Assembly (NCBI GenBank): GCA_958450865.1
Contig: CAUDNY010000008.1
Location: 56,748-120,747 of the forward strand
Length of the DNA stretch: 64,000 nt
Direction of reading: 5' to 3'
DNA from: an uncultured Collinsella sp.
Lineage (GTDB): Bacteria; Actinomycetota; Coriobacteriia; Coriobacteriales; Coriobacteriaceae
The notes below the pieces were generated by a model that ran no database searches, was not told the DNA's origin, and saw only the letters and a program-made list of their open reading frames with translations. Within the stretch, counting starts at the first letter, position 1, and each line of letters starts with the position of its first letter. Positions 6,818 through 40,441 of this stretch are shown piece by piece. A program made the position numbers and the translations under genes.

Positions 6818-6818
6818 T

Positions 6819-6859: not shown

Positions 6860-6862
6860 GAG

Positions 6863-26812: not shown

Positions 26813-26813
26813 T

Positions 26814-26937: not shown

Positions 26938-26973
26938 TTTCGCGCCGAAGGCGTGGCCCGCGGCCTCGCTTGC

Positions 26974-27420: not shown

Positions 27421-27480
27421 AGAACGATACCTTTCATATAGAAGGCTGCTAAAGAGTCGAAGCCGGGCGCATGCCAAGTT

Positions 27481-28230
27481 TTATTTCTTGGCCAGTTTGA
27501 AGTAGCGCTCAAATATCAATTCGAAAACGTAATAGAACATCAATCGACTGTCGAGGTCCATGCTGCCCAAGCGGATTTCTTTTTGCACGGTGTAGATAGG
27601 GTAGTCGGCTAGTTTCGAGAGAGAATTTCGAGAAAAGCCGGTGAGCGTGACGACCTTGCATCCGCGCGTTTTGGCTATCGATGTGGCGTCAATAGACACC
27701 TGCGTCTCGCCGCTTACGGAAACGCTGAAGACCAGGTCGTTTTTGCCGAGGAGTTCTGCGTAATGCCTCATGACATGGCGTTCACTGAGCGTATCGGTGT
27801 TCTTGCCCATTATTTTGAGCTTTTCAGCCATTTCGAGGCACGGGTACTTCGAAAAGCCCGAGCAGAAGAACACGATATGCGAGGCGTCCTGGATAAGACT
27901 CACGACCGAATCGATGACCCGGTCGTTAAGCAGATCTTTGGTCTGTACGAGCTGGGTATCAAGAGGAAGCGCCTCGATAGTGAATCGATTGCGGTCGAGC
28001 GAGGCGGAATACGATTGTTTGAGCTCTGTAAACCCCGAGAAGCCAAGCTTGTGGGCAAGCCTGACGATTGTATTGGGAGCGACGAAGAACCGTTCAGCAA
28101 CGCTCTTAAGCGTGACATCGTCAATATCATCACGCAGCTCGATGATGTAGCGCATGATCTCGCTTTCGAGATCGTTGAGCTTGCTCTCGCCAGCTCGCAC
28201 ATGATCATAAAAAGATTCTTGATCTTTCAT
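27481..28230 (-). CDS. RpiR/MurR-family regulator (HTH + SIS), GlvR-like
   Basis: HTH LKSVAERFFVAPNTIVRLAHKLGFSGFTELK. SIS domain follows. Lower GC than the flanks. Confidence 0.85.
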   Translation of the reverse strand: MKDQESFYDHVRAGESKLNDLESEIMRYIIELRDDIDDVTLKSVAERFFVAPNTIVRLAHKLGFSGFTELKQSYSASLDRNRFTIEALPLDTQLVQTKDLLNDRVIDSVVSLIQDASHIVFFCSGFSKYPCLEMAEKLKIMGKNTDTLSERHVMRHYAELLGKNDLVFSVSVSGETQVSIDATSIAKTRGCKVVTLTGFSRNSLSKLADYPIYTVQKEIRLGSMDLDSRLMFYYVFELIFERYFKLAKK

Positions 28231-28528
28231 AAGATGTTTCAGCCCCTCGCACCTCGTCGTATATATGGTACCGCTTTGTGTTGCCAGGTGAGAAATCGGT
28301 AATCGGTCAAGATTGCCTATTGCCCATGAACTGGGCAAACGCGCGTGTCTGCCTACACATATCTGTGTCGTGAGCGAAATCATGTGTCCCCGTTTCGCAT
28401 TGGCCCACACGGGGACTCTCAAATGACCTTATGTCGCAAAATATCAATCGAAACGAAGCAAGCCGAGGACAACCGCGGAGCCCAAGGTCTTCGAGAACAC
28501 CGATCAGCCAACCCTGGAGGGACGGAAC

Positions 28529-29854
28529 ATGAAGGATAAGCTCAATATTGTGATCGTTGGCGGCGGCTCCACGTGGTGCCCTGGCATTCTTAAAGCCCTG
28601 ACCAAGCACATGGACATTCTGCCGCTGAACCGCGTGATGCTCTATGACATCGATGCCGAGCGTCAGCGTCCGATCGGCGAGTTTGGCAAGATCCTCTTCG
28701 CCGAGGAGGAGCCCGGTGTGGAGTTTGGTTACACCACCGATAAGGACGAGGCTTACACCGACGTCGACTTTGTGCTCTGCCAGATTCGTACCGGCGGCTA
28801 CGAGATGCGTAGCAAGGACGAGAAGATTCCGCTGCATATGGGAATCATCGGCCAGGAAACGGTGGGCCCTGGCGGCATGGCTTACGGTATGCGCTCCATG
28901 CATGACATGGTTGAGATCGTCAACGACGTTCGCGCTCATAGCCCGGAGGCGTGGATTATCAACTACACCAACCCGGCTGCTATTGTGGCATATGGTCTCG
29001 AGCGCGTCCTGCCCGATGAGCATCGCGTCCTCAACATCTGCGATCAGCCCGTCAACCTCATGCGCTCTTACGGTCGCCTGCTCGGTCGCGATATGAGCAA
29101 GACGGAGCCCGTGTACTTTGGTCTCAATCACTTCGGTTGGTTCAAGCACATCTACGATGAAGAGGGCCATGACCTTGTCCCGCAGATTAAGGAGTACACG
29201 GAGAAGAACGGCTTCCTTCCTGCCGATGCCGAGCAGCGTGACCAGTCCTGGCTCGACACCTACGCCATGGTCAAGGACATGCTCGAGGACTTCCCCGACT
29301 ATCTGCCCAACACTTATCTGCAGTACTATCTGTATCCCGAGTACAAGGTCGCTCACCTCGACCCCGACTACACTCGCTCCGACGAGGTTATCAACGGTCG
29401 TGAGAAGCGCGTGTTCGCCGAGTGCGAGCGTGTTGCCAAAGTCGGCACCGCAAAGAACTCCTCGGTTGTGCAGAACGATGCTCATGGCGATATGATCGTG
29501 GAAATCACCTCGGCCATTTATCGCAACACCAACAAGACCTTCATTGTCATCGTGCCCAACAACGGCATTATCGAGGGTATGCCCGATGACGCCATGGTCG
29601 AGGTCGCGGCAAGCGTGGGCGCCAATGGCCCGCAGCCCTATGCTGTTGGCAAGATCGGCACCTTCTATCGCGGCCTTATGGAGAACCAGTACGCCTATGA
29701 GCGCCTGACTGTTGAGGCTTGGATGGAGGGTTCCTACGAGAAGGCCCTGCAGGCACTCACGCTTAATCGTCTGGTCGGTGACGCAAAGAAGGCTCGCAAA
29801 GTGCTCGACAAGCTCATCGAGGCCAATAAGGATTACTGGCCGGAGCTTAAGTAG
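28529..29854 (+). CDS. glvA: GH4 6-phospho-alpha-glucosidase (GlvA/MalH-like)
   Basis: IVIVGGGSTWCPG NAD-binding N-terminus, GQETVGPGGMAYGMRS, NYTNPAAIV. Colinear with B. subtilis GlvA as I recall it. Confidence 0.8.
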   Translation: MKDKLNIVIVGGGSTWCPGILKALTKHMDILPLNRVMLYDIDAERQRPIGEFGKILFAEEEPGVEFGYTTDKDEAYTDVDFVLCQIRTGGYEMRSKDEKIPLHMGIIGQETVGPGGMAYGMRSMHDMVEIVNDVRAHSPEAWIINYTNPAAIVAYGLERVLPDEHRVLNICDQPVNLMRSYGRLLGRDMSKTEPVYFGLNHFGWFKHIYDEEGHDLVPQIKEYTEKNGFLPADAEQRDQSWLDTYAMVKDMLEDFPDYLPNTYLQYYLYPEYKVAHLDPDYTRSDEVINGREKRVFAECERVAKVGTAKNSSVVQNDAHGDMIVEITSAIYRNTNKTFIVIVPNNGIIEGMPDDAMVEVAASVGANGPQPYAVGKIGTFYRGLMENQYAYERLTVEAWMEGSYEKALQALTLNRLVGDAKKARKVLDKLIEANKDYWPELK

Positions 29855-29883
29855 CTAGTTCCATAGCGCTTGATAACTGTTAT

Positions 29884-29922
29884 GGGGCGTGTGGGCTGTA
29901 GAGCTGCACGCCCCGTTTCTTT
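29884..29922 (+). terminator. intercistronic hairpin + T-run between the GH4 and PTS genes (terminator or attenuator)
   Basis: ggggcgtg - 15 nt - cacgcccc followed by GTTTCTTT. Confidence 0.45.
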
Positions 29923-29936
29923 AAGAGGGGTATCCC

Positions 29937-31499
29937 ATGAACAAAGATGAGCTGCTGGCAAAGTTCCAGCGCCTGGGCAAAGTCCTCATGACGCCTGTCT
30001 TGATCCTGCCAATCGCCGGCATCCTTCAGGGCTTTGGCAATGCCTTTACCAGCCCCACCCTTACGGCAGCTGTTCCCTGGCTTGCTGCTCCGGGCTTTGC
30101 GATTTTCTTTTCGATTCTCAAGGCCGCGGCCGGCATCGTTATGAACAACATCCCGGTTATCTTCTCGATTTGTCTCGCCTATGGCTTCGCCAAGTCCGAG
30201 AAGGCTACCGCGGCGCTTTGTGGCTTTTTGGGCTACATGTGCATGAACTCCGTGATGGGCACGTTCCTTACGGCGACTGGCGTTATCGATCCTGCGAATC
30301 TTACGACGGGCCAGAGCACGATTCTCGGCATCACCACGCTCGACACTGGCGTTATCGGCGGTCTTCTGGTGGGTGCAATCGTCGCATGGCTGCATAACCG
30401 TTACTACAAGATTGAGCTGCCTGCCGTGTTCTCCATCTTCAACGGCACGCGCTTTATCCCGGCGGTGACGCTGCTCTCATGCAGCATCCTCGCATTGGTC
30501 ATGTCCTTTGTTTTCCCGTTTATTCAGAACGCTCTCGGCGCACTGTCCGAGTTCATCAAGACCACGGGTGCCTTTGGAGCATTTGTCTATGGCGCCGGCG
30601 AGCGTATGCTCCTGCCTTTTGGCCTGCATCATTTTGTCTATTTGCCGTTCTTCTTCACGTCGCTCGGTGGCGTCGAGACCATCGACGGCCAGACTGTTCA
30701 GGGCGCTATCAATATCTACAACGCGATCCTGGGCTCTTCTAGCACGCCGTTTAACATCGAGGTCAGCCGTTTTGTCATGAACGGCAAGGTTGTCTTCGCC
30801 ATGTTCGGCCTGCCTGGCGCTGCACTCGCCTTCTACAAGACAGCGCTTCCCAAGAACAAGAAGAAGACCGCAGCGCTCATGATCGCCATCGTGGTGCCTT
30901 GCATCCTCTCCGGCATTACCGAGCCGCTCGAGTACTCCTTCCTGTTCATCGCGCCCATCCTCTACGTGTTCCACGCTCTCATGGCTGGTCTTGCCTATGC
31001 GCTGACCTATATCCTGCAGTTCAACGTGGCCGGTTCCGCGTCCTTCGGCGGCCCGCTCCTGTCGCTTATCTTTAATGGCATCATGGGCGCCGCAAAGGGT
31101 TCCAACTGGCAGGTTATCCTGTTCCTCGGCCCCATCTACTTCGTGGTGTACTACTTCGTCTTCAAGTTCATCATTCTTAAGAAGGGCCTTAAGACCCCCG
31201 GCCGCGAGGAAGAGTCCGACGATGAGGCTGAAAAGGCTCCCAAGACCGTGATCAGCGACCTCATTCCCGCCATCGTTGAGGCAGTGGGCGGCGACAACAA
31301 TATTAAGTCTGTCGAGGCCTGCTTCACCCGTCTGCGCATCCAGCTCAATGACTGTGACAAGGTGGTTGATGACGCCGAGTTTACCGAAAAGCTCGAAGCG
31401 CGTGGCATCGTGCATGTTAACGGCGGCGTGCAGATTGTCTACGGCAACATGGCTTCTAACTACGCAACCCAGATGCGCGAGCTGCTGGGCATGGAGTAA
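29937..31499 (+). CDS. PTS EIICB, glucose/maltose/alpha-glucoside family (GlvC/MalP-like); no EIIA domain
   Basis: The N-terminus FQRLGKVLMTPVLILPIAGIL is typical of EIIC-Glc. C-terminal EIIB NIKSVEACFTRLRIQL carries the catalytic Cys. Confidence 0.85.
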   Translation: MNKDELLAKFQRLGKVLMTPVLILPIAGILQGFGNAFTSPTLTAAVPWLAAPGFAIFFSILKAAAGIVMNNIPVIFSICLAYGFAKSEKATAALCGFLGYMCMNSVMGTFLTATGVIDPANLTTGQSTILGITTLDTGVIGGLLVGAIVAWLHNRYYKIELPAVFSIFNGTRFIPAVTLLSCSILALVMSFVFPFIQNALGALSEFIKTTGAFGAFVYGAGERMLLPFGLHHFVYLPFFFTSLGGVETIDGQTVQGAINIYNAILGSSSTPFNIEVSRFVMNGKVVFAMFGLPGAALAFYKTALPKNKKKTAALMIAIVVPCILSGITEPLEYSFLFIAPILYVFHALMAGLAYALTYILQFNVAGSASFGGPLLSLIFNGIMGAAKGSNWQVILFLGPIYFVVYYFVFKFIILKKGLKTPGREEESDDEAEKAPKTVISDLIPAIVEAVGGDNNIKSVEACFTRLRIQLNDCDKVVDDAEFTEKLEARGIVHVNGGVQIVYGNMASNYATQMRELLGME

Positions 31500-31725: not shown

Positions 31726-32988
31726 CTATGCCCGTATTGAGGGCTGTGCTGATTGACGGCGACGCTCCCAGCGAGCCAGCTTAATCGTCACCAGCGCGAG
31801 CGCCCAGGCCACAAGCGAGAACGCGGCTCCCACTGCGCCCACGTACGCAATGCCAATGCTGCTTACCACGGCGCCGCCCACTGCGGTGCCAAACGAGATG
31901 CCGACGTTAAACGCCATGGGCTCAACCGAACTTGCGAGTACCATCGACTTGGGATGGCGGCTGCGTGCCACGTCCATAAAGTGCGTGATGCACGACACCG
32001 AGAACAGGTACATGAGCAGCGCCAAGCTAAAGACAAAGACCAGCGCGAGCGGCATGGTGCCGCCCACAGCAAACAGCCCGAGCAGCGCCGCAGCCTGCAG
32101 CACAAACGTCACAAGCAGTGCCTTCATGCCAAAGCGCGCATCGATCCATCCGCCCAGGATGTTCGAGATCAGACAGAACACGCCGTAGGCCATAAGCGTG
32201 GTGCTCGCCTGAACGGTGCCCATGCCCAGCACCTGCTCAAGATAAGGCGTCACGTAGCCGTAGAACACGTAGACCGAGCCCACGCCAAACAAAAAGATGA
32301 GCATGCCGGTGATGATGCTCGGCTCGCGTAGCAGACCCGCCTGCTCGCGGAAGGTGGCAGGCTCGTCGGTTTGCCCAGCGCGCGGCATAAACGCCACGAG
32401 CGCTCCGCAGATCAGAACGGCAAAGGTAAGCGTGCCGTACATGGCCACGTGCCAGTCGAGCGTGTCGGCCACAAACTTGCCGATCGAAGTGACAAAGACC
32501 ATTGCCACGGAAAACGCACCATATACCACCGAGATGGCAAGCGAAGTTTGCTGCGGGGACAGCAGCTCGGGGATGTACGTCACGCCCACGGCGAGCAGTG
32601 CGCCCGAGACGGAGCCCAGGACAATGCGCGAGATAAACAGCACCTGGAAGTTGGGCGCCAACGCCATGACCAGGTTGCCGAGCACAAAGACGATGCTGTA
32701 GCACACGAGCAGCTGGTAGCGGCGGAATCGCCCCGTGCTGAGCGCAAGCGCCGGCGTGGCGATAGCGTAGACGAGCGCGAACACGCTGATGAGCTGGCCC
32801 GCAGTAGCAAGTGATACGCCGAGTTCCGTTGCCAAGTCGCTCTCGATACCGATGACCACGAACTCGGAGCAGCCGAGAGAGAATCCCAACAGCACGAGCA
32901 GCGCCAGGCAGAGCTTGGTGCGCGCGGGGGAGAGCGCGGCGGCGGTTGACTTACTTTTAGGCGTGGTTGCGGCGGTCAAGGTTGTCAC
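31726..32988 (-). CDS. MFS transporter (DHA1/YdhP-like); start uncertain (GTG 32988 or TTG 32979)
   Basis: 12-TM pattern; GRFRRYQ loop motif. The tracked ORF extends upstream through a non-coding palindrome, so a shorter start is preferred. Confidence 0.75.
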   Translation of the reverse strand: MTTLTAATTPKSKSTAAALSPARTKLCLALLVLLGFSLGCSEFVVIGIESDLATELGVSLATAGQLISVFALVYAIATPALALSTGRFRRYQLLVCYSIVFVLGNLVMALAPNFQVLFISRIVLGSVSGALLAVGVTYIPELLSPQQTSLAISVVYGAFSVAMVFVTSIGKFVADTLDWHVAMYGTLTFAVLICGALVAFMPRAGQTDEPATFREQAGLLREPSIITGMLIFLFGVGSVYVFYGYVTPYLEQVLGMGTVQASTTLMAYGVFCLISNILGGWIDARFGMKALLVTFVLQAAALLGLFAVGGTMPLALVFVFSLALLMYLFSVSCITHFMDVARSRHPKSMVLASSVEPMAFNVGISFGTAVGGAVVSSIGIAYVGAVGAAFSLVAWALALVTIKLARWERRRQSAQPSIRA

Positions 32989-33037
32989 TCCAATGTCGCA
33001 TGAATAAGCGGGATTCAATCCCTGCAACTCTAACAGA

Positions 33038-33068
33038 ATGTGACAAAGGAGCAGTCTCTTTGTCACAT
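33038..33068. repeat. GACAAAGGGAC palindrome, copy 2 (variant; in a divergent promoter region)
   Basis: atgtgacaaaggagcagtctctttgtcacat. Confidence 0.8.
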
Positions 33069-33075
33069 GAAGACC

Positions 33076-33106
33076 TTGCCTGTATAGTCGCAATACAGGC
33101 GAAGAT
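33076..33106 (+). promoter_or_regulatory. putative MerR-type promoter/operator P1: TTGCCT - 19 bp - GAAGAT with dyad CCTGTAT-N7-ATACAGG
   Basis: Read directly. 23 of 31 positions are identical to 34216-34246. Lies 35 nt upstream of the lpdD-idi ATG. Confidence 0.45.
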
Positions 33107-33140
33107 GGTCTCAGGTACATCGCGGGCGACAGGAGATCCC

Positions 33141-34088
33141 ATGGGTATGCACACGACAAAGGTTGCAGTGGGCGAGGGCAAGTTTGCGCTCGAGGCCCAG
33201 TTGACGGTGACGCCGCGAGGCATGGTGGCGTACGCCTGCTCGCCGGAGTTCGCGCACCTGGGCGCTACAGCGCAGGCCATTCCGCGCCCCGAGCCCGACC
33301 GTACGGCGACGGTGAGCATCCTGGCCGTTCCGTGCCATCGAGATGAGATCCCGGCGCACGATATCGCGGCGGCGCTGGCCACGCGCTTTAGTGTGCCGGT
33401 AGTTGCAAGCACAGGTTTTCATGTCGAGCAGGCGAGCACGGATGACCTGCAGCGCGTGCTCGATACCACCAAGGAGCTCATCGCCGCGCTCGAGGAAGCT
33501 GCCGCCCGCATTCTGCGCGCCGGCTGGGATGAGGGCGGCGCGGGTGCCGAGGTCGTGGCGGTCGATGCCGCGACCGGCGAGGCGCTCGGCCCCGTCGATC
33601 GCATCGAGGCCCATGCCGGTGAGGGCATCCTGCATCAGGCATTTCTGACGCTTCTGGTCGAGGGACAGGGCGAAGACGCGCGCCTGCTGCTCTGCCGCCG
33701 CAGCCCGCTCAAGCGCCTGTGGGGCGGCGTGCTGGCCGACGGCTGCGCCGGGCATCCGCTCCCTGGGGAAGACGTCGCCGTCGCGACGGCGCGTCGCATC
33801 AACGAAGAGCTCGGCATCACGCGCGCATCCGACCAGCTCAAGCACCTCGGTCACGTGACCTACCGCGAGGACCACGGCGACGGTCGCTGCGAGTGCGAAT
33901 GGTGCGAGGTCTACCTTGTCCATGTTGAGCCGGGCGAGCTGCATATCAACCAAGAGGAGATCTCGGAAGTGCGCCGCGTGGCCCCGTCCGAGCTCAAAGG
34001 CTACCTGCAGGGTCACCCTGAGCAGCTGGCCCCCTGGCTCCGCGAGGCTCTGGAGGTCCCCTCCATCCGCGCAGCCCTCGCTATGTGA
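33141..34088 (+). CDS. fusion protein: LpdD/KpdD-like prFMN-decarboxylase D subunit (N-terminal, about 135 aa) + isopentenyl-diphosphate delta-isomerase type 1 / Nudix domain (C-terminal, about 170 aa)
   Basis: AGGAG lies 5 nt before the ATG at 33141. The N-terminal part has ...SPEFAHLGAT...VPCHRDE...STGFHVEQASTDDL. The C-terminal part has EAH..LHQAF, RRSPLKRLWGGVLADGCAGHP, RRINEELGI and ECEWCEVY, in IDI-1 order. Single uninterrupted frame. Confidence 0.75.
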   Translation: MGMHTTKVAVGEGKFALEAQLTVTPRGMVAYACSPEFAHLGATAQAIPRPEPDRTATVSILAVPCHRDEIPAHDIAAALATRFSVPVVASTGFHVEQASTDDLQRVLDTTKELIAALEEAAARILRAGWDEGGAGAEVVAVDAATGEALGPVDRIEAHAGEGILHQAFLTLLVEGQGEDARLLLCRRSPLKRLWGGVLADGCAGHPLPGEDVAVATARRINEELGITRASDQLKHLGHVTYREDHGDGRCECEWCEVYLVHVEPGELHINQEEISEVRRVAPSELKGYLQGHPEQLAPWLREALEVPSIRAALAM

Positions 34089-34112
34089 AAAAAGACAGTT
34101 CCTTTGCCATAT
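34083..34112. repeat. GACAAAGGGAC palindrome, degenerate copy 3 (contains the lpdD-idi ATG-TGA end)
   Basis: atgtgaaaaaagacagttcctttgccatat. Same ATGTGA junction as copy 4, but the arms are decayed. Confidence 0.3.
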
Positions 34113-34114
34113 CC

Positions 34115-34181
34115 AAACCGTCACAGCATTCGATGAAAATCTCGAAATCGAGGAAAAGCGTCGAATGTTGTGACGGTTTTT
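34115..34181 (+). terminator. long-stem intrinsic terminator after lpdD-idi
   Basis: aaaccgtcacagcattcga - 27 nt - tcgaatgttgtgacggttt (19 bp, 1 mismatch) followed by TTTTT. Confidence 0.7.
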
Positions 34182-34215
34182 GTCCAGGGGATCGCTTCTC
34201 ATCCAAAAATCCCGC

Positions 34216-34246
34216 TTGACTGTATTGCCGCAACACAGCGCAACGT
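34216..34246 (+). promoter_or_regulatory. putative MerR-type promoter/operator P2: TTGACT - 19 bp - CAACGT with dyad CTGTAT-N9-ACACAG
   Basis: Aligns without gaps to P1: ttgaCTGTATtgcCGCAAcACAG versus ttgcCTGTATagtCGCAAtACAG. Confidence 0.4.
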
Positions 34247-34281
34247 AAGGGGTGTCCGATAACGGGCGCCCCTTTTTAAGT
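34247..34281 (+). promoter_or_regulatory. terminator-like hairpin in the 5' leader of the permease-ubiD-ubiX operon
   Basis: aaggggtgtccg - ATAA - cgggcgcccctt (12 bp including two G-U pairs), running into TTTTT. About 50 nt before the permease ATG. Confidence 0.45.
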
Positions 34282-34330
34282 GGCAACGCGGCTGCGAATC
34301 CGGAGCGCCCCCAACAAGAAAGGTGGGGAG

Positions 34331-35788
34331 ATGGAAGCGGAAAAGAAGGCGTTTAAGATCACCAAGCGCGAAATTGGCTTTGTGCTGGGTATCGTTGTCT
34401 TTTTGCTGGTGAAGTTTCTTCCTTTGGCGGAGCTGAGCTCGACGGTCGAGCTCACGGTCGGCGGTCAGACCTGTCTGGCGTTGACGCTCGCCACGGTGGT
34501 GTTCTGGGCGTGTGGCGTGGCACAGCCGGGCTTTGTGGGTCTGCTCTACTGCGCGCTGCTCGTTCTGTTTCAGGTGTGCGTGGACGACACGGGCGCCGCG
34601 AGTATCTCGGCGACGGTCGCCTCTACGTTTAGCTCGTGGACCAAAGCCACCATGTGGCTCGTCATCGGCGCCTACCTCATCGCCAGCGCGGTCAAGGAGT
34701 CGGGCCTGGGCGAGCGTATCGCCTACGCGTTTATGCTCAAGTTCGTGCGCGATGCCAAGTCGCTCATCATCTCGATCTTCGCGCTCACCTTTGTGCTGTC
34801 GCTGCTGATCCCGCACCCGTTCCCCCGTGCCTTCCTCATCCTCGCCGTCGTCTCGGTCATCGCCGAGTCCGCCGGCTACGGTGACGATGACCACGGCAAG
34901 CTCGGATTCCTCGTGTTTGCCGCTGCCGCCCCGGGTTCCATGTTCTTCCTGACGGGCGACTCCACGCTCAACCCGCTCGTTGCGCAGTACAGCGCCGAGG
35001 TCGGCGGCATGAGCCCGTCTTTCGTCGACTGGTTCCTCTACATGAGCGTGCCCATGCTGGTTGCGCTGCTGTGCACCCTGTTCCTGGGTCTCTTCCTCTT
35101 TAAGCCCAGCAAGGAGCTCGTCTACGATCGCGAGCAGATCGTGGCCAAGCAGGCCGCGCTCGGCAAGCTCTCCGTCAAGGAGATTCGCACCATCGTGTGG
35201 CTTGTCATCGCCATTGCGCTGTGGCTCACCGTCTCGGGCGATTACATCGGCTGGGTCACCCTGGCCATCGGCGTCTCTCTTGCCATGCCCATCATCGGCG
35301 AGGTCCTCACCCCCGCCAGCTGGAACGCTGTCGACATCAAGTCCCTCATGTTCCTGACGGCCGCCATGGCCGTGGGTTCCGTGGGCGGTGCCACCGGCAT
35401 GAACGCCTGGATCGCCGATGTCGTGCTTCCCAGCTCCGTGCCCGAGAACATCTTCCTGTTCGCCCTGCTTGTCGCCGCGCTCTCCATGGTCATCCACATG
35501 TTCATGGGCTCGGTCATGGCCGTGCTCGGCGTGTGCGTGCCGGCGTTCATCAGCTTCGCGGCCGGCTCCAGCGTAAGCCCGCTCGCCGTGGCGCTCATCG
35601 TCTTCACGTCCATCAACATCCACTACATTCTGCCGTTCCACAACCTGCCGATCCTTATCGGCGAGGGCAAGGACGCCGGCGGCTACACCTCCAAAGAGGC
35701 TATGCGCATGGGCATTCCCCTCACTGTGGTCGTCTTTATCGTCGTGCTGGTCGAGGCCGCCTGGTTCCACCTCTTTGGCCTGATGTAA
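34331..35788 (+). CDS. ion-transporter-superfamily anion permease (DASS/ArsB-like), putative aromatic-acid importer
   Basis: ATG after AAAGGTGGGGAG. About 12 TM segments with the two-repeat architecture typical of SLC13/CitMHS-like permeases. The substrate is inferred from context only. Confidence 0.7.
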   Translation: MEAEKKAFKITKREIGFVLGIVVFLLVKFLPLAELSSTVELTVGGQTCLALTLATVVFWACGVAQPGFVGLLYCALLVLFQVCVDDTGAASISATVASTFSSWTKATMWLVIGAYLIASAVKESGLGERIAYAFMLKFVRDAKSLIISIFALTFVLSLLIPHPFPRAFLILAVVSVIAESAGYGDDDHGKLGFLVFAAAAPGSMFFLTGDSTLNPLVAQYSAEVGGMSPSFVDWFLYMSVPMLVALLCTLFLGLFLFKPSKELVYDREQIVAKQAALGKLSVKEIRTIVWLVIAIALWLTVSGDYIGWVTLAIGVSLAMPIIGEVLTPASWNAVDIKSLMFLTAAMAVGSVGGATGMNAWIADVVLPSSVPENIFLFALLVAALSMVIHMFMGSVMAVLGVCVPAFISFAAGSSVSPLAVALIVFTSINIHYILPFHNLPILIGEGKDAGGYTSKEAMRMGIPLTVVVFIVVLVEAAWFHLFGLM

Positions 35789-35931
35789 GCGGTCGAGCGC
35801 TTGGGCTGTAAGCAGCCGAGTGCTCGAACTGCGAGTGGCCGAGCGTCCCATCTATGAGCGCCGCGGCCCCACTACGTTACCCAGCCCGGCGGCATCCTCG
35901 CCGCCGGGCACTCTCCCGAAAGGAGCATGCT

Positions 35932-37419
35932 ATGTCCACTACCGATGCTTCCCAGATCCACGACCTGCGCTCCGCGCTCGACTTTTTGCGCGAGGTGCCG
36001 GGCCAGCTGCTCGAGACCGACACCCAGGTCGATCCCGATGCCGAGGTCTCGGGCGTCTATCGCCACGTCGGTGCCGGCGGCACCGTTATGCGCCCGACCA
36101 AAGAGGGCCCGGCGATGGTCTTCAACAACGTCAAGGGCTTTGACGATGCCAAGGTCTGCATCGGCATGCTTGCCAGCCGCAAGCGCGTTGCCGCTCTGCT
36201 CGACCTGGACGAGGAGCACCTGGGCCTCGAGATCGGCAAGCGCTTCGAGAACCTGATCGCGCCCGAGCAGATCGCCGAGGGTGCGCACGTCGACTGTCAG
36301 GAGGTCGTGTACAAGGCGACCGACGAGGGCTTTGACCTGCGCAAGATCGTTCCCGCTCCCACCAACACGCCCGTCGATGGCGGCCCCTACATCACCATGG
36401 GCCTCGCCTACGGCACGAGCCCCGACGGCTCCCAGTCCGACGTGACCATCCACCGCTTCTCCTGCGTCGACAAGGATAAGCTTGCCATGTGGATTACCCC
36501 CGGCAGCCGTCACCTGGGCGCGTTCTTTGACGAGTACTGCCAGCGCGGCGAGGACATGCCCATCTCCATCTCCATCGGTTTGGACCCCGCCGTGTACATG
36601 TGCTGCGGTTTTGAGGCTCCCACCACACCGCTCGGCTTCAACGAGCTGCAAATTGCCGGCGCCCTGCGCGGCCACGCTGTCGAGCTTGCCGACTGCGTCA
36701 CCGTTCCGCAGAAGTGCATCGCCAATGCCGAGTACGTGCTCGAGGGCTACCTCATGCACGACGAGACCATCAACGAGGACGTCAACGGCCACGGCTACGC
36801 CATGCCCGAGTTCCCCGGCTACACCGGCGGCGCCAAGGTCTGCCCGGTGATCAAGATCACCGCCGTCACCACGCGTGTCAACCCCATTATGGAGAGCTGC
36901 ATCGGCCCTTCGCACGAGCACGTGTCCATGGCCGGTATCCCCACCGAGGCTTCCATCTACAAGATGGTCGAGACCGCTATCCCGGGCCGCCTGCTCAACG
37001 TCCACGCTGCTCCCTGCGGCGGCGGCAAGTTCGTTGCCATCATGCAGTTCAAGAAGTCGAGCAAAAATGACGAGGGCCGTCAGCGCAACGCCGCCATGCT
37101 CGCCTTCTCGGCATTCTCCGAGCTCAAGCATGTGATTCTGGTTGACGAAGACGTCGACATCTTCGACATGAGCGACGTGATGTGGGCCATGACCACGCGC
37201 TTCCAGGCCGACGTGGACCTCATCACCATCCCCGGCTGCCACTGCCACGTGCTCGACCCGTCCAACGATCCCGCGTTCGACCCCACGATCCGCGAGCATG
37301 GCATCGCCTGCAAGGCCATCTTCGACTGCACGGTTCCGTTCAACCTCAAGAAGAACTTCATCCGCTCGCAGTTCATGGAGATCGACAAGGACAAGTGGGC
37401 CAAGGAGATTGCTTTCTAG
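35932..37419 (+). CDS. UbiD-family prFMN-dependent decarboxylase, AroY/LpdC (protocatechuate/gallate decarboxylase) type
   Basis: AGGAG lies 6 nt before the ATG. DLRSALDFLREVPGQLLETDTQVDPDAEVSGVYRHVGAGGTVMRPTKEGPAMVFNNVKGF parallels the Klebsiella AroY / L. plantarum LpdC N-terminus. Confidence 0.85.
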   Translation: MSTTDASQIHDLRSALDFLREVPGQLLETDTQVDPDAEVSGVYRHVGAGGTVMRPTKEGPAMVFNNVKGFDDAKVCIGMLASRKRVAALLDLDEEHLGLEIGKRFENLIAPEQIAEGAHVDCQEVVYKATDEGFDLRKIVPAPTNTPVDGGPYITMGLAYGTSPDGSQSDVTIHRFSCVDKDKLAMWITPGSRHLGAFFDEYCQRGEDMPISISIGLDPAVYMCCGFEAPTTPLGFNELQIAGALRGHAVELADCVTVPQKCIANAEYVLEGYLMHDETINEDVNGHGYAMPEFPGYTGGAKVCPVIKITAVTTRVNPIMESCIGPSHEHVSMAGIPTEASIYKMVETAIPGRLLNVHAAPCGGGKFVAIMQFKKSSKNDEGRQRNAAMLAFSAFSELKHVILVDEDVDIFDMSDVMWAMTTRFQADVDLITIPGCHCHVLDPSNDPAFDPTIREHGIACKAIFDCTVPFNLKKNFIRSQFMEIDKDKWAKEIAF

Positions 37420-37452
37420 TAAGTAGCCCTACCAAGTAGTCAAGGAGTTGTC

Positions 37453-38031
37453 ATGCCTGAGTCTTCTGGCCGTCCCCGTCGCATCGTCGTTGGCGTGTCT
37501 GGCGCTAGCGGTGCCGCGCTGGGTCTTGAGTGCCTCAAATGCCTGCGTCAGGCCGGTGCCGAGTCGGCGCTTGTCGTCACACGTGGGGGAGAGATCACCA
37601 TCGAGCAGGAGCTCGGCATGACGCTCGACGAGTTTGCCGCGCATGCCGATGTGGTCTACGACAACAAGAACATCGGCGCCGCCATCGCAAGCGGCACCTA
37701 TCCGGTCGACGGCATGATCGTGGCCCCGTGCTCCATGAAGACGCTCGCCGGCATCGCAAGCGGCTACAGCGAAAACCTGCTGCTGCGTGCGGCCGACGTG
37801 CAGATGAAAGAGCAGCGCCGCCTGGTGCTCATGGTGCGCGAGACGCCCTTCAGCGCCATTCACATCGACAACATGGCGCGCCTGGCGCGCGTGCCGGGCG
37901 TCATGCTCATGCCGCCCATGCTCACGTTTTACAACGGCCCCGCCACGCTCGATGACGCGGTGCATCACATTGCCGCCAAGGCGCTCGAGGCCGTCGGCGT
38001 GTCATGTGCAAACTATAAGCGCTGGTCATAG
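37453..38031 (+). CDS. ubiX: flavin prenyltransferase UbiX (LpdB/KpdB equivalent)
   Basis: RIVVGVSGASGAALG..., VAPCSMKTLAGIASGYSENLLLRAADVQMKEQRRLVLMVRETP. Typical 192 aa. Confidence 0.9.
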   Translation: MPESSGRPRRIVVGVSGASGAALGLECLKCLRQAGAESALVVTRGGEITIEQELGMTLDEFAAHADVVYDNKNIGAAIASGTYPVDGMIVAPCSMKTLAGIASGYSENLLLRAADVQMKEQRRLVLMVRETPFSAIHIDNMARLARVPGVMLMPPMLTFYNGPATLDDAVHHIAAKALEAVGVSCANYKRWS

Positions 38032-38063
38032 GCGTCTTTAGGGTAGGATACGAGGAGTGTTTG

Positions 38064-38093
38064 AGCCCGCTGCCCCTGTGGGCGGCGGGCTTT
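38064..38093 (+). terminator. hairpin after ubiX
   Basis: agcccgctgccc - ctgt - gggcggcgggct (12 bp, one G-U pair) then TTTGG. Supports the merR start at 38112 rather than 38061. Confidence 0.5.
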
Positions 38094-38111
38094 GGTGTGT
38101 CGGGAGGATCT

Positions 38112-38981
38112 ATGCAGATGGGCATGTATGCGATTAGCGAGATGGCGAGCTTGTTTAACGTTTCGCGCCAAACGCTCATCTACTACGACAAGATCGGCCT
38201 GTTTAAGCCCGCCGTGGTTAACGAAAAAGGCTACCGTTTCTATTCGCCCACGCAGATCCCGCTCATGCGTCTGATCTGCATGCTGCGCGACCTGGGGCTC
38301 GAACTCGACGAGATCGACCGTCTGACCTCGACGTTCGACATTGGCGAGATGACCGATCACCTGCGCTCACGGGTGCAGGCGCTCGACGAGCAGATTGCCG
38401 GGCTCAAAGCCGAGCGTGCGAGCGTGCAGGAGCGTCTGAGCTTTTACGACGAGGCAGTTTACTGGCGCGAGCGGGAGGGCAAGCCGGAGCTCAAGCAGTT
38501 TGAGCGTCGCTACGTGGTCTTTGAGGAGTTTCCGGGCGATATCGAGCGTGGCCGCTCGATGCTGCACCCCACGCTCATGCGGGCGATTCTGCGCATGCGT
38601 ACGCTGACGGGCACGCGTCCCATGCGCGGCTGGGGCGCCATGCTGCGTCGCGAGGCGCTGCATTCCGACGACCCCATCGCCGGCGCCGGCTCCTTTGCCG
38701 TGCTGCCGCGCGGTGCCGAGGAGTTGCTGCCGAGCGACGCTGCCGAGCTGGCAGAGATCGGCATCGAAGTGCTGCCCGAGGGCACATACCTGTGCATGAG
38801 CCGCTGGGGCATGCCGTACGAGCCCGAAGGCATCCGCGCCATCGTGGCCTGCATGGACGAGCACGCGCTCCAGCCCGTTGGCAACGCCTTCGACTTTTGC
38901 TACCTCGATACCACGAGCTACGACGAGTCCCACCAAGAGGACTTCTGCTGCATCCAAATCCCCGTCGCCCTCCAGATGTGA
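38112..38981 (+). CDS. MerR-family regulator with C-terminal GyrI-like effector-binding domain
   Basis: GGAGG before the ATG. HTH YAISEMASLFNVSRQTLIYYDKIGLFKP...GYRFYSPTQIPLMRLICMLRDLGLELDEI, a coiled coil, then an effector domain of about 170 aa. Confidence 0.8.
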   Translation: MQMGMYAISEMASLFNVSRQTLIYYDKIGLFKPAVVNEKGYRFYSPTQIPLMRLICMLRDLGLELDEIDRLTSTFDIGEMTDHLRSRVQALDEQIAGLKAERASVQERLSFYDEAVYWREREGKPELKQFERRYVVFEEFPGDIERGRSMLHPTLMRAILRMRTLTGTRPMRGWGAMLRREALHSDDPIAGAGSFAVLPRGAEELLPSDAAELAEIGIEVLPEGTYLCMSRWGMPYEPEGIRAIVACMDEHALQPVGNAFDFCYLDTTSYDESHQEDFCCIQIPVALQM

Positions 38982-39006
38982 CAAAGGGACAGTCCCTTTG
39001 TCACAT
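38976..39006. repeat. GACAAAGGGAC palindrome, copy 4 (consensus; supplies the merR ATG-TGA end)
   Basis: atgtgacaaagggacagtccctttgtcacat; 13-bp perfect arms. Confidence 0.9.
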
Positions 39007-39018
39007 CCACGCCCATTT

Positions 39019-39098
39019 CTTAGAAACTTGCAAAAACTGCAAGTTTCTAAGGTAACATCTTATAAACTTGCAAATAATGCAAGTTTATAAGATGTTAC
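39019..39098. repeat. two abutting perfect AT-rich palindromes sharing the core AAACTTGCA-N5-TGCAAGTTT
   Basis: P1 is cttagaaacttgca-aaaac-tgcaagtttctaag (39019-39051). P2 is gtaacatcttataaacttgca-aataa-tgcaagtttataagatgttac (39052-39098). Confidence 0.9.
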
Positions 39099-39124
39099 GT
39101 CTGGCCGGGCGCTAGGGAGACTCT

Positions 39125-40441
39125 ATGAACATCGTTCGCCGAAGCCGCTATCTTGATCGACTCATTGCTTTTCAGGATACCGACCTCATCAAAATCGTGA
39201 CGGGTATACGCCGTTGCGGCAAATCCACGTTATTGGACATGATGAGGGAGCACCTGGCGCAACAGGGGGTGCCGGCCGAGCGTTTGCTGACCTTTAAGAT
39301 GGAATCTCTAGAGTATGCGGGGATTACAGATTACCTGACGTTTTATCGCATGGTTCGGGAGCGCGTTGACGGTGTCGATCGTCCCTATCTGTTCTTTGAC
39401 GAGCTCCAGAATGTCGAGGGCTGGGAAAAGGCGGTTAACTCGCTCCGAATCGATTTGCCGTGCGATATCTATGTCACGGGCTCCAATGCCTTTTTGCTAT
39501 CGAGCGAGCTTGCAACGCTTATCTCGGGCCGGTATATCGAGGTCAAGATGCAGCCGCTCACGTTTGGCGAGTATCTTGATTTTCGCTCGATTGATGCGGT
39601 CGTTGCCGAAGGGCTTGGCGAGAGGGCCGAGCTCGTTTCCAAGACGGGCGATCGCCTTAATTCAAACACCGTGCTCGAGCAGTACATAACCTATGGCGGC
39701 ATGCCGTTTCTGGCTCATGACGAGCCGAGACGCGAACCGTGCCTCGACTACATCCGCAGCCTCTATCAGACGATTGTCGCGCGCGATATCCTATTGCGCG
39801 CGACGCGTAGAGGTCGCGGAGCTATCACCAAGCGCGACGTTCTCGAGCGGCTCTGTGCGTATCTGGCAGACAACATCTCCAATCAAACTTCGGTCAACAA
39901 AATCGTAGGGACGCTCAACGAATCATCGGGCGGTAAGACCAACGCATCGACGGTGTCGGCGTATATTGACGCTCTGGAAGAGACGTACCTGTTTACCAAG
40001 GTAAAAAGGTATGACGTCAAGGGGCGGGAGCTTCTCAAGACAGGCGGTAAATATTACATAGCCGATACGGGAATCCGCAGCTATCTTGACGGATATAGAG
40101 GCAGCGATAGCGGAAGGATGCTCGAGAACGTTATCTACAACCAGCTTGTCTTTGAAGGATACGAAGTGTTTTGCGGCCATCTGCGCGCGGGGGAAATCGA
40201 CTTTGTCGCAATCGGCGAGGGATCGGACCGTAAATATATCCAGGTTACCGAACGGATCGATGCTGAGGCGACCAGAGAGCGTGAGCTGCGACCGCTCAAA
40301 CTAAACACGCTGGGAAAAATCCCTGATTCGTACGAGAAGATCCTGATTGTCAGGGATGGTGAGCATCCAACAGACATCGACGGCATCAGAATCGTAGGGG
40401 CGGCCGATTTCTTGCTGAGAAACAAGATCGCCCACGGCTAA
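39125..40441 (+). CDS. AAA-family ATPase with DUF4143 C-terminal domain (AAA_14/DUF4143 architecture)
   Basis: Walker A GIRRCGKST and Walker B LFFDELQ. The layout ITGSNAFLLSSELATLISGRY...PLTFGEY is typical of this family. Visibly lower GC than its neighbours. Confidence 0.8.
   Translation: MNIVRRSRYLDRLIAFQDTDLIKIVTGIRRCGKSTLLDMMREHLAQQGVPAERLLTFKMESLEYAGITDYLTFYRMVRERVDGVDRPYLFFDELQNVEGWEKAVNSLRIDLPCDIYVTGSNAFLLSSELATLISGRYIEVKMQPLTFGEYLDFRSIDAVVAEGLGERAELVSKTGDRLNSNTVLEQYITYGGMPFLAHDEPRREPCLDYIRSLYQTIVARDILLRATRRGRGAITKRDVLERLCAYLADNISNQTSVNKIVGTLNESSGGKTNASTVSAYIDALEETYLFTKVKRYDVKGRELLKTGGKYYIADTGIRSYLDGYRGSDSGRMLENVIYNQLVFEGYEVFCGHLRAGEIDFVAIGEGSDRKYIQVTERIDAEATRERELRPLKLNTLGKIPDSYEKILIVRDGEHPTDIDGIRIVGAADFLLRNKIAHG

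Follow-up and report, generated by a model that had tools for sequence, protein, structure and literature searches.

A single gene of an uncultured Collinsella sp., inferred to be a gut actinobacterium, encodes a protein in which an LpdD-type chaperone domain, inferred by homology to bind the prenylated-flavin cofactor (prFMN) of aromatic-acid decarboxylases, is joined to a divergent type-1 isopentenyl-diphosphate isomerase (IDI)-like Nudix domain, of the kind that makes the prenyl building block of the cofactor. The same pairing recurs beside the cofactor-synthesis gene ubiX in many relatives, pointing to a dedicated supply line for this cofactor, and no description of the architecture was found in the literature searched. 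The gene was encountered in a 64,000-nucleotide stretch of contig CAUDNY010000008.1 (GenBank assembly GCA_958450865.1; hereafter the window), where a first-pass annotation made from the sequence alone had reported an in-frame fusion of an LpdD-like D subunit to an IDI-1 domain. That observation was confirmed, with the exception of two details, whereas its interpretation as a physical coupling of prenyl-donor formation to a cofactor chaperone was supported only in part.

The fusion gene and its domains

The fusion gene occupies positions 33141..34088 (+) and comprises 315 sense codons followed by TGA, without an internal stop. A ribosome-binding site, AGGAG, is found at 33131..33135 (+), 5 nt before the ATG, and homologs start at the same place. 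The exact protein is present in public collections, within a cluster of 611 members. Within the 64-kb window, there is no paralog of either domain.

The N-terminal half (residues ~1-127) is an LpdD-type domain. Pfam model PF21758, named PAC_bac in the copy used and LpdD_chaperone in newer Pfam labels, matches aa 12-119 (33174..33497, +) at 66.4 bits against a cut-off of 27, covering profile positions 2-112 of 115. A single-sequence search of the PDB with this domain returned nothing, even at E values up to 10, but a profile built from the family hit the LpdD crystal chains 8po5, 8pzh and 8p4w over their full length at E values of 9e-5 to 1.4e-4. Consistent with this, an AF2 model of the domain (pLDDT 94) gave LpdD 8po5_A as its top Foldseek match (E 3.7e-6), with TM values of 0.73-0.83 across the LpdD chains, followed by the PAC3/PAC4/Pba3-4 chaperones. 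The Mn2+-binding triad of LpdD, His35, His61 and Asp63 (PMC10865409), aligns to His39 (33255), His66 (33336) and Asp68 (33342), and these are invariant in an alignment of 17 family members. The LpdD motifs cited in the first-pass annotation, PHIG and GIHVNQITKAQI, are indeed present in LpdD and align to FAHLGAT and GFHVEQASTDDL, respectively. The last helix of the LpdD fold is long (aa 100-127; 33438..33521, +) in the DSSP assignments of the AF2 models and runs into the linker, where it is followed by a conserved R-A-x-W motif (Arg126 and Trp129, both invariant in the 17-sequence alignment).

The annotation had further likened this half to the D subunits of both LpdBCD- and KpdBCD-type decarboxylases, but this conflated two families. 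The D subunit of KpdBCD, EcdBCD and BsdBCD belongs to PF26358, which was not among the Pfam hits to the fusion protein at E values up to 0.1; in other genomes it is encoded beside the fusion as a separate gene of 68-69 aa, next to a second, VdcC-type UbiD.

The C-terminal half (aa 137-310; 33549..34070, +) is a type-1 IDI-like Nudix domain. PF00293 (NUDIX) matches aa 165-298, and sequence searches recovered the IDI of Escherichia coli and Salmonella at E values of 1e-13. However, the domain scores below both curated equivalog cut-offs, with 124.5 bits against 127 for NCBIfam NF002995/PRK03759 and 71.6 against 105.8 for TIGR02150. The full-length AF2 model (pLDDT 89, pTM 0.83) matched E. coli IDI (1nfs/1hx3) best, with 1nfs_A at E 1.8e-14 and a TMt of 0.84, and the top 16 Foldseek hits in the PDB were all bacterial or human IDI. 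Models of Nudix hydrolases (YfcD and others) scored at most 23.6 bits.

Active-site residues of the IDI-like domain

Of the six E. coli Idi residues that the first-pass annotation had assigned by eye, five hold: His158, His165, His205, Glu251 and Glu253 correspond to His25, His32, His69, Glu114 and Glu116 of the metal site, and they are invariant in the family. The equivalents of the diphosphate/Mg ligands are Arg154 (Lys21), Arg187 (Arg51), Lys191 (Lys55), Arg219 (Arg83) and Glu223 (Glu87), while Tyr241 and Trp299 correspond to Tyr104, of the Glu116/Tyr104 proton relay, and Trp161, the carbocation shield. The metal, diphosphate, Glu116, Tyr104 and Trp161 equivalents are all kept in this protein, and almost without exception across 139 representative relatives.

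The sixth assignment, that of a cysteine to the catalytic Cys67, was incorrect, and hence the Cys/Glu catalytic pair is not intact. In the active-site strand Cys202-Ala203-Gly204-His205 (33744..33755, +), HMMER and MAFFT alignments are ungapped from W58/W194 to G68-H69-P70/G204-H205-P206 and place Cys202 at Val66 and Ala203 at Cys67, the latter falling onto the Ala of the C67A mutant chain 1ow2. Cys202 is invariant in the 17-sequence alignment, and residue 203 is either Ala or Ser. In a regular beta-strand, Cys202 would be expected to point away from the site, and Cys-to-Ala mutants of the E. coli and yeast enzymes are essentially inactive. A further cysteine, Cys255, occupies the Cys118 position. 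The Nudix box reads G204-x5-E210-x7-R218-R219-I-N-E222-E223-L-G225-I, in which the Glu of the RE pair is replaced by Arg exactly as in true IDIs. The notion that this sequence, RRINEELGI, is more hydrolase-like than the box of E. coli IDI was rejected, as Glu-Glu at positions 86/87 is the norm among the 139 IDI representatives and the Tyr-Glu of E. coli is the exception.

Organization of the gene cluster in the window

Downstream of the fusion gene, three genes on the same strand precede a regulator. The first (34280..35788, +) encodes an anion:Na+ symporter of the DASS family (PF00939, 121.6 bits; TIGR00785), the presumed substrate importer; a DASS gene also lies between ubiD and ubiX in three loci of relatives (designated L008, L009 and L019), and in a fourth (L014) it is fused to UbiX. 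The second (35854..37419, +; true start probably the ATG at 35929) encodes a UbiD-family decarboxylase with UbiD_N, UbiD and UbiD_C domains, of the AroY/LpdC (protocatechuate/gallate decarboxylase) type, its best PDB relatives being the AroY entries 5o3m, 5o3n and 5ny5 (547-557 bits, E 5e-166). The third (37453..38031, +) encodes the flavin prenyltransferase UbiX, followed by a MerR-family regulator (38061..38981, +).

A candidate sigma-70-like promoter, TTGTCA-17-TATAGT, is located at 33060..33088 (+). It matches 10 of 12 consensus positions and is the only such site in 32700-39200, but this is a consensus match only, and about 1.3 sites are expected by chance. Overlapping its -35 element, and 73 bp upstream of the ORF, is a 29-bp palindrome, TGTGACAAAGG..CAGTC.CTTTGTCACA (33039..33067). 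It is one of four copies in the window, where none is expected by chance, and a second copy at 38977 closes the gene cluster; it may represent a REP-like element, a terminator or an operator. Directly after the stop codon of the fusion gene, a long hairpin followed by UUUUU (34115..34185, +) is a likely intrinsic terminator, or an attenuator before the transporter gene. Folding of 34086-34200 gave -48.6 kcal/mol (z = -7.2), a scan also listed the inner stem plus T-run, and there was no Rfam match. Given that this strong terminator-like hairpin separates the fusion gene from the DASS, ubiD and ubiX genes, co-transcription is not assured here. No riboswitch or known RNA was found by Rfam in 32700-39200, the only hits being spurious matches of miRNA models to hairpins at 39021-39115.

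Conservation of the pairing with ubiX

The fusion was found in Collinsella, Coriobacterium, Lancefieldella and uncultured relatives. Of the 120 listed clusters at 90% identity, about 82 carry both Pfam domains, reaching down to 53% identity in Coriobacterium glomerans. Every fusion locus examined lies within a few kb of ubiX, and of ubiD where the contig reaches that far, in at least five different gene orders. The order in the window is fusion-DASS-UbiD-UbiX-MerR; in C. glomerans, it is fusion-UbiD-DUF554-UbiX-MerR; in Collinsella AGMB00827, UbiD-EcdD-DASS-UbiX-fusion; in Ca. C. stercoripullorum, UbiD-EcdD-DASS-UbiX-UbiD-fusion; in Lancefieldella sp. Marseille-QA0953, UbiD-69aa-DASS-UbiX-fusion, with a 17-nt overlap with ubiX; and in the metagenomic locus P0229, UbiD-EcdD-DASS::UbiX-153aa-fusion. 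In a second, independent lineage (group B), LpdD is fused to a canonical Cys-Cys IDI, and the order is (MerR-UbiD-)DUF554-UbiX-fusion, with the MerR gene adjacent in one locus; the group-B fusion P0340 passes both NCBIfam IDI cut-offs.

The same two domains also occur as separate neighboring genes next to ubiX in metagenome-assembled genomes (MAGs) of Coriobacteriia and other Actinomycetota, arranged as UbiX-LpdD-IDI, UbiX-LpdD-UbiD-IDI or UbiX-IDI-LpdD. In these split versions, the R-A-x-W motif belongs to the N-terminus of the IDI-like protein, which starts with ...AAW(Q/R)xDE; one of them, L024, passes the PRK03759 cut-off only (146.1 bits). Conversely, some closely related stand-alone LpdD genes are not near ubiX or an IDI gene. 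The search of the genome collection used a degenerate DNA pattern that was validated on known loci and that deliberately excludes the common Collinsella "LWG" variant, and hence it is not a census; the pattern unexpectedly did not return C. glomerans from the genome collection, although it matches that locus.

Of 12 genomic hits of this "C[AS]GH" IDI subtype (the Cx type), nine adjoin UbiX/LpdD/UbiD, compared to 0 of 120 metagenomic loci for its sister clade in the distance tree (Fisher p = 9e-12), which ruled out the idea that all IDI-like proteins lacking Cys67 are linked to prFMN. The sister clade has no Cys at position 66 either (motif TVA[ST]HP), although the Cys118 position is Cys in most of its members, and it passes the IDI cut-offs. 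It is found instead in archaeal-type operons for mevalonate kinase, isopentenyl phosphate kinase (IPK), IDI and GGPP synthase, in 45 of 60 loci of at least 5 kb. The absence of Cys67 is therefore compatible with being the IDI of a pathway. No isoprenoid-pathway gene neighbors any Cx-type locus.

The premise of the first-pass annotation that UbiX requires a monophosphate donor is too narrow, as several UbiX enzymes, including those of E. coli O157, E. coli K12 and A. niger, use DMAPP directly (PMC6541611). His172 of the UbiX encoded in the window aligns to His164 of E. coli O157 UbiX, the position that contacts the DMAPP beta-phosphate, and all 15 distinct UbiX sequences compared (14 from the LpdD/IDI-linked loci plus that of the window) have His there. 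However, His at this 181/164 position is explicitly not the sole determinant of DMAPP use (PMC6541611).

Proposed function in prFMN biogenesis

Given these domain identities, conserved residues and genomic associations, the 315-aa protein is proposed to serve as a two-domain accessory factor of a UbiX/UbiD aromatic-acid decarboxylase system, a reading to which a probability of roughly 0.55 is assigned. By homology, the N-terminal domain would bind the oxygen-sensitive product of UbiX, prFMNH2, at its His-His-Asp/Mn2+ surface and hand it to the AroY/LpdC-type decarboxylase. The C-terminal domain, a member of a specialized clade found almost only beside ubiX and lpdD that keeps the whole isoprenyl-diphosphate site, most likely converts IPP to DMAPP, which could be used directly by this UbiX. 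In this view, the fusion brackets the UbiX reaction, with one domain raising the local supply of the scarcer C5 isomer and the other capturing the product. While the identities of the domains, their conserved residues and the association with ubiX, both as a fusion and as neighboring genes, rest on the data presented here, the binding of prFMNH2 and activation of apo-UbiD, the isomerase activity despite Ala at the Cys67 position, the use of DMAPP by this UbiX and any physical complex with UbiX are inferred.

The loss of Cys67 and the scores below the IDI cut-offs leave room for other functions of the C-terminal domain, though each is considered unlikely. As the first-pass annotation had also suggested, it may be a phosphohydrolase that trims DMAPP (or IPP) to DMAP, the donor of DMAP-specific UbiX enzymes, doing in cis what NudJ, NudB and NudF do in E. 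coli. The replacement of Cys67 by Ala or Ser throughout the UbiX-linked clade, the nearly complete Nudix box and the precedent of Nudix hydrolases as a route to DMAP (Wang et al., 2018, cited in PMC12359138) are in keeping with this, but the box deviates exactly as in true IDIs, its Glu-Glu pair is not a reversion, and the residues that serve isomerization only (the His3Glu2 metal site, Glu116, Tyr104 and Trp161) remain invariant. The parallel fusion of LpdD to a fully canonical IDI, the His of the associated UbiX proteins and the position of the Cys67-less sister clade in mevalonate operons likewise argue against it. Somewhat less likely is a catalytically dead or very slow IPP/DMAPP-binding module that docks on UbiX, for substrate delivery or sensing, or gates chaperone function according to isoprenoid supply. 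Retention of every ligand-binding residue without the general base, and fusion to a non-enzymatic chaperone, would fit this notion. However, the Glu116, Tyr104 and Trp161 equivalents and Cys255 are strictly conserved over sequences only 30-55% identical, which is more than binding alone would require; moreover, the split genes persist as independent ORFs and the group-B fusions keep full catalytic equipment. A speculative and likewise improbable extension of these alternatives is that the UbiX-linked clade is not an IPP isomerase at all but a new enzyme of prFMN biogenesis, either a dedicated DMAPP-to-DMAP phosphohydrolase or a proton-transfer catalyst applying the Glu/Tyr/Trp carbocation machinery to the prenyl group during or after flavin prenylation. 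It would work in a physical complex with LpdD and UbiX, a "prFMN synthase metabolon," with LpdD acting at the UbiX step rather than only as a passive carrier.

That the gene is simply the housekeeping IDI of the organism, accidentally fused to LpdD near ubiX, is disfavored. Family members are plainly annotated by NCBI and UniRef as isopentenyl-diphosphate Delta-isomerase or NUDIX hydrolase, but the association is kept through at least five gene orders, in fused and split forms, in two independent IDI lineages and in several genera, and both the counts of UbiX-adjacent hits and the absence of neighboring isoprenoid-pathway genes distinguish it from the sister clade. A frameshift artefact joining two genes, which the first-pass annotation had named as a possible refutation, was rejected. 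Some Collinsella sequences are split by a frameshift in the GC-rich linker (P0126) or carry an internal deletion (P0062), but the intact fusion is present in about 82 independent 90%-identity clusters, including clusters of 10,574 and 611 member sequences, and in the isolate genomes of C. glomerans PW2 and Lancefieldella sp. Marseille-QA0953, and the linker is a confidently modeled helix with conserved Arg126 and Trp129.

Relationship to known systems

The closest characterized relative of the N-terminal domain is LpdD of Lactiplantibacillus plantarum (lp_0272; PDB 8PO5/8PZO), the prFMNH2-binding chaperone of the LpdB/LpdC gallate decarboxylase system (Gahloth et al., 2024; PMC10865409). The two share the PF21758 family, the Pba3/4-like fold, the metal triad and, as partners, a UbiX and an AroY/LpdC-type UbiD. 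However, they are only about 13% identical in the structural alignment, and LpdD is a free protein of 120-140 aa to which no isoprenoid enzyme has been linked, whereas the fusion protein carries a C-terminal IDI-like domain of 180 aa. With respect to E. coli Idi (PDB 1HX3/1NFS), this domain differs in having Ala at position 67 and Cys at position 66, in its N-terminal R-A-x-W extension, and in its association with LpdD and UbiX instead of isoprenoid-pathway genes. In E. coli, the C5 prenyl donor for flavin prenylation is supplied by the Nudix hydrolases NudJ, NudB and NudF and the kinase ThiM (Wang et al., 2018, as summarized in PMC12359138). NudJ, NudB and NudF share the Nudix fold, but all four are promiscuous housekeeping enzymes unlinked to ubiX, are hydrolases or kinases rather than IDI-like proteins, and are not fused to a chaperone. 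Other small accessory proteins encoded in UbiD/UbiX operons, the flavin-reductase-like oxidative maturase PhdC/YclD (PMC13040415) and the EcdD/BsdD/VdcD small subunits (PF26358), encoded next to VdcC-type decarboxylase genes, have unrelated folds and roles and match neither domain of the fusion, although EcdD-type genes co-occur with it in several loci.

UbiD/UbiX decarboxylases are widespread and sought after for biocatalysis, but many cannot be activated heterologously, and both the in vivo source of the prenyl donor of UbiX and the mode of action of LpdD-type chaperones remain gaps. The conserved pairing of LpdD with a dedicated IDI-like protein brings together in one small system the questions of whether local conversion of IPP to DMAPP limits prFMN synthesis and whether LpdD docks on UbiX, and it points to co-expression of ubiX with lpdD::idi as a simple recipe for activating recalcitrant UbiD enzymes. 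It also defines a subclade of IDI-1 proteins that lack the textbook catalytic cysteine and, together with the occupation of the IDI position of archaeal-type mevalonate operons by a sister clade without that residue, questions how universal the Cys67 mechanism is. Finally, it exposes a drift in annotation, as stand-alone LpdD proteins of 131 aa are labeled isopentenyl-diphosphate isomerase.

The Fused Open Reading Frame

The + strand from 33141 to 34088 was found to translate without interruption into 315 residues followed by TGA, with AGGAG at 33131-33135, five bases before the ATG, and homologues begin at the same Met. The exact protein is present in public collections within a 90%-identity cluster of 611 sequences, and a neighboring cluster at 94% identity contains 10,574. 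Of the 120 homologous clusters listed, about 82 carry both Pfam domains, and these reach down to 53% identity in the isolate genome of Coriobacterium glomerans PW2. Hence, the single ORF is not an assembly artefact, and the observation made in the first-pass annotation, that one gene joins the two domains, was upheld. Strain-level variants do exist in Collinsella; one homologue (P0126) carries a frameshift in the GC-rich linker, a second (P0062) has an in-frame deletion removing residues ~55-155, and in a third (P0115) the LpdD domain is joined to an unrelated tail matching PF25137. The source names of the closest homologues and the G+C content of 60.5% point, by inference, to a Collinsella species.

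The N-Terminal LpdD-Type Domain

Pfam PF21758 matches residues 12-119 at 66 bits against a cut-off of 27; the model is named PAC_bac in the Pfam release used, and LpdD_chaperone in the newer labels attached to public gene calls. A search of the PDB with the single sequence returned no match, but a profile built from eleven family members hit the three Lactiplantibacillus plantarum LpdD entries over their whole length at E about 1e-4. An AlphaFold model of the domain (pLDDT 94) has LpdD 8PO5 as its best structural match, with TM 0.73-0.83, followed by the proteasome-assembly chaperones that LpdD is known to resemble. LpdD itself was shown to bind only reduced prFMN, to support activation of apo-UbiD, and to have a Mn2+ site formed by His35, His61, and Asp63 (Gahloth et al., PMC10865409). 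These three residues align to His39, His66, and Asp68 of the window protein, which are invariant in the family. The first-pass assignment of this half to LpdD was thus correct. However, its equation of LpdD with the KpdD/EcdD/BsdD small subunits was not; those belong to PF26358, which does not match this protein and which occurs as a separate 68-aa gene beside the fusion in other genomes.

Stand-alone LpdD genes also exist that are 70-77% identical to the N-domain of the window protein. Carried on contigs of up to 1 Mb (loci L001-L003, 7251-8396, and L004-L006), they have no UbiD or UbiX within 8 kb, and one type sits 52 nt after a gene for a HAD-family hydrolase and before an AIRC/POR/AMP-ligase set. 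Two such 131-aa LpdD-only proteins are labelled isopentenyl-diphosphate delta-isomerase by JGI, apparently by transfer from the fusion.

The C-Terminal IDI-Like Domain

PF00293 matches residues 165-298. The NCBIfam IDI equivalog PRK03759 scores 124.5 bits, just below its cut-off of 127, while TIGR02150 scores 71.6 against 105.8. The best sequence hits in the PDB are the IDI enzymes of Escherichia coli and Salmonella, at 1e-13, and these are also the best structural matches of the full-length model (pLDDT 89, pTM 0.83; TMt 0.84, E 1e-14). Compared residue by residue with E. coli IDI, the equivalents of the metal ligands are present as His158 (H25), His165 (H32), His205 (H69), Glu251 (E114), and Glu253 (E116), those of the diphosphate/Mg ligands as Arg154 (K21), Arg187 (R51), Lys191 (K55), Arg219 (R83), and Glu223 (E87), and those of the proton relay and carbocation shield as Tyr241 (Y104) and Trp299 (W161).

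The exception is the catalytic cysteine. The spacing between the anchors Trp194 (W58) and Gly204-His205-Pro206 (G68-H69-P70) is identical to that in E. coli, and therefore Cys202 aligns to Val66 and Ala203 aligns to Cys67; Ala203 superposes on the Ala of the C67A mutant chain 1OW2. Cys202 is invariant in the family, and position 203 is Ala or Ser. Among 139 representative IDI-like domains drawn from 1.8 billion proteins, 97 were counted with Cys-Cys at positions 66/67, 12 with Cys at 67 only (the E. coli type), 14 with Cys at 66 only (the type found here, denoted Cx), and 18 with neither (denoted xx). The position of Cys118 is Cys in 28 of the 32 sequences that lack Cys67.

Genomic Context of the Fusion

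In the window, the fusion gene is followed by a strong hairpin plus U-run (34115-34185), a DASS anion symporter, a UbiD whose closest solved relatives are the AroY protocatechuate decarboxylases (557 bits, E 5e-166), a UbiX whose closest solved relative is that of E. coli O157, and a MerR regulator. This is the same kind of system as LpdB/LpdC/LpdD of L. plantarum.

Every fusion locus that could be retrieved elsewhere lies beside ubiX, and beside ubiD where the contig is long enough, although the gene order differs. The order is fusion-UbiD-DUF554-UbiX-MerR in C. glomerans, UbiD-EcdD-DASS-UbiX-fusion in Collinsella sp. AGMB00827, UbiD-EcdD-DASS-UbiX-UbiD-fusion in Ca. C. stercoripullorum, UbiD-69aa-DASS-UbiX-fusion in Lancefieldella sp. 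Marseille-QA0953, where the fusion overlaps ubiX by 17 nt, and UbiD-EcdD-DASS::UbiX-153aa-fusion at the locus of the metagenomic homologue P0229. A single ORF of 650-670 aa fusing a DASS-family transporter to UbiX (Na_sulph_symp plus Flavoprotein) was seen upstream of an LpdD::IDI fusion on three independent metagenomic contigs (L014, at 5254-7380, L015, and L016); this would be a membrane-anchored flavin prenyltransferase. Some loci (L009/L010, 2188-7711, and L025) carry two different UbiD genes around one UbiX and one LpdD/IDI set, the one encoding a VdcC-like UbiD and followed by an EcdD/BsdD small subunit, and the other an AroY-like UbiD close to that of the window. One cofactor-supply module may therefore serve two decarboxylases.

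An exhaustive search of representative sequences, together with a further profile search, revealed a second group of fusions (homologues P0340 and P0373-P0377). Their IDI domain is canonical, with the motif NTCCSHP, and passes both NCBIfam cut-offs. These fusions also sit directly after ubiX, in the order (MerR-UbiD-)DUF554-UbiX-fusion. In a rough neighbor-joining tree of 153 IDI domains, the two groups fall in different parts of the family, and hence the LpdD-IDI fusion seems to have arisen at least twice.

Split Genes and Specificity of the Association

One genome per species (GTDB) was scanned with a degenerate DNA pattern for the Cx active-site region, which was designed to skip the very numerous Collinsella LWG variant and was first validated on loci already identified. 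Of the 12 hits obtained, local HMM annotation showed nine to lie next to UbiX, LpdD, and/or UbiD. In seven of these nine, the LpdD and IDI-like domains are encoded by separate genes, arranged as UbiX-LpdD-IDI (loci L027, L030, and L033), UbiX-LpdD-IDI with about 1.3 kb of unannotated sequence before the IDI gene (L026), UbiX-LpdD-UbiD-IDI (L024 and L025), and UbiX-IDI-LpdD (L028). All of these split proteins, the first group of fusions (group A), and three stand-alone representatives form one clade of 16 members. A second hint of a link between this clade and flavin metabolism, albeit one resting on a single 3.4-kb contig (L017, 239-2100), is a stand-alone Cx-type IDI-like gene (P0234, 201 aa, with the N-terminal motif R-A-A-W) that starts 3 nt after a ribBA gene (DHBP synthase/GTP cyclohydrolase II).

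As a control, metagenomes were scanned for the sister xx clade, yielding at least 120 loci (L034-L153). All of the 120 recovered contain an IDI-like domain, and none has UbiX, UbiD, LpdD, or the DASS transporter. Instead, 78 of the 120 have mevalonate kinase, isopentenyl phosphate kinase, and/or a GGPP-synthase-like gene in an overlapping operon (e.g., L040, 7107-10464), and among loci of at least 5 kb the figure is 45 of 60; the family names were confirmed. The contigs are mostly low in G+C (median 36%). The IDI-1-like proteins concerned lack Cys at both positions 66 and 67 (motif WDGTVA[ST]HP) and yet pass both curated IDI cut-offs, suggesting that the textbook Cys67 is dispensable in a whole branch of IDI-1. 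The contrast between the clades is 9 of 12 against 0 of 120 (Fisher p = 9e-12), with the reservation that the two scans used different collections and locus lengths. It was concluded that the Cx clade is a dedicated neighbor of the prFMN machinery rather than a housekeeping IDI, and that a lack of Cys67, being compatible with occupation of the IDI slot of an isoprenoid pathway, does not by itself argue for loss of isomerase activity.

Proposed Role in prFMN Biogenesis

The first-pass annotation gave the prenyl donor of UbiX as a dimethylallyl (mono)phosphate. UbiX does not generally need the monophosphate DMAP; the UbiX enzymes of Aspergillus niger and E. coli K12 were shown to be DMAPP-specific, that of E. 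coli O157 uses both donors, and that of Pseudomonas aeruginosa is DMAP-specific (Marshall et al., 2019, PMC6541611). The residue at position 181 of the P. aeruginosa enzyme (Phe in that enzyme, Gln203 in A. niger, and His164 in O157) contacts or blocks the beta-phosphate, though it is not the sole determinant. The UbiX of the window has His172 at this position, as do all 14 other distinct UbiX sequences from the LpdD/IDI-linked loci, which on present evidence shows compatibility only. DMAPP made by an IDI could then be used directly, without a separate trimming step.

It is proposed that the C-domain converts IPP to DMAPP, that UbiX uses DMAPP and FMNH2 to make prFMNH2, and that the LpdD domain captures prFMNH2 and delivers it to the AroY-type UbiD for oxidative maturation. 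The analysis establishes the domain families, the conservation of the ligand-binding and catalytic residues other than Cys67, and the conserved genomic coupling, whereas each biochemical step, and any physical complex, is inferred. Membership of the UbiX/UbiD system is considered highly likely and the binding of prFMNH2 probable, while genuine isomerase activity is judged about as likely as not, or slightly more so; the overall probability of the model is placed at approximately 0.55. The interpretation offered in the first-pass annotation, that the fusion couples formation of the prenyl donor to the cofactor chaperone of a UbiD enzyme, is supported in part.

The rival possibilities are that the C-domain functions as a DMAPP phosphohydrolase or as a non-catalytic binding module, that the gene is an incidental housekeeping IDI, or that the fusion is an artefact. 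The absence of Cys67 and the scores below both NCBIfam cut-offs leave isomerase activity unproven, but the sister xx clade indicates that the former does not of itself favor a loss of this activity. The incidental association of a housekeeping IDI is disfavored by the contrast between the Cx and xx clades, and an artefact by the many clusters in which both domains are found.

The constituent parts, LpdD and IDI-1, are known, and the proteins themselves are already held in databases, annotated as isopentenyl-diphosphate Delta-isomerase or NUDIX hydrolase. What was not found described is their pairing, whether fused or adjacent, as a conserved component of UbiX/UbiD operons, together with the existence of a UbiX-linked IDI clade that lacks Cys67. 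Full-text searches linking LpdD, prFMN, UbiX, or UbiD with Nudix proteins or IDI, in which most subscription journals were not represented and absence is thus not proof, returned only unrelated work and the papers on LpdD and PhdC, neither of which mentions Nudix, isomerase, or a protein fusion. Although activity is unproven, the pairing turns two open questions of prFMN biogenesis into direct experiments.

Other Features of the Window

The hairpin at 34115-34185, with a roughly 21-bp stem and a U-run, is very stable (z = -7.2), lies immediately after the fusion gene, and has no Rfam match. In this genome, the fusion gene may be its own transcription unit, or the hairpin may be an attenuator for the DASS-UbiD-UbiX genes. 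Two further long hairpins lie adjacent to each other at 39021-39115, between the MerR gene and the AAA_14 gene, and these give only spurious sub-threshold hits to miRNA models in Rfam.

A perfect or near-perfect palindrome of 29 bp, TGTGACAAAGG(N2)CAGTC(N)CTTTGTCACA, occurs four times in the window (16023-16051, 33039-33067, 38977-39005, and 40450-40478), where none is expected by chance. The copies at 33039 and 38977 bracket the whole fusion-DASS-UbiD-UbiX-MerR cluster, while those at 38977 and 40450 bracket the AAA_14/DUF4143 gene, which is absent from the syntenic locus of C. glomerans, where MerR is followed directly by aldose epimerase. The palindrome may be a REP-like element, a terminator, or an operator. 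The upstream neighbors (25666-31499) are unrelated sugar genes, encoding a PdxK/ThiD-like kinase, an RpiR regulator, a GH4 6-phospho-glycosidase, and a PTS EIICB, and an MFS transporter (31726-33159, minus strand) is divergently transcribed from the fusion gene.
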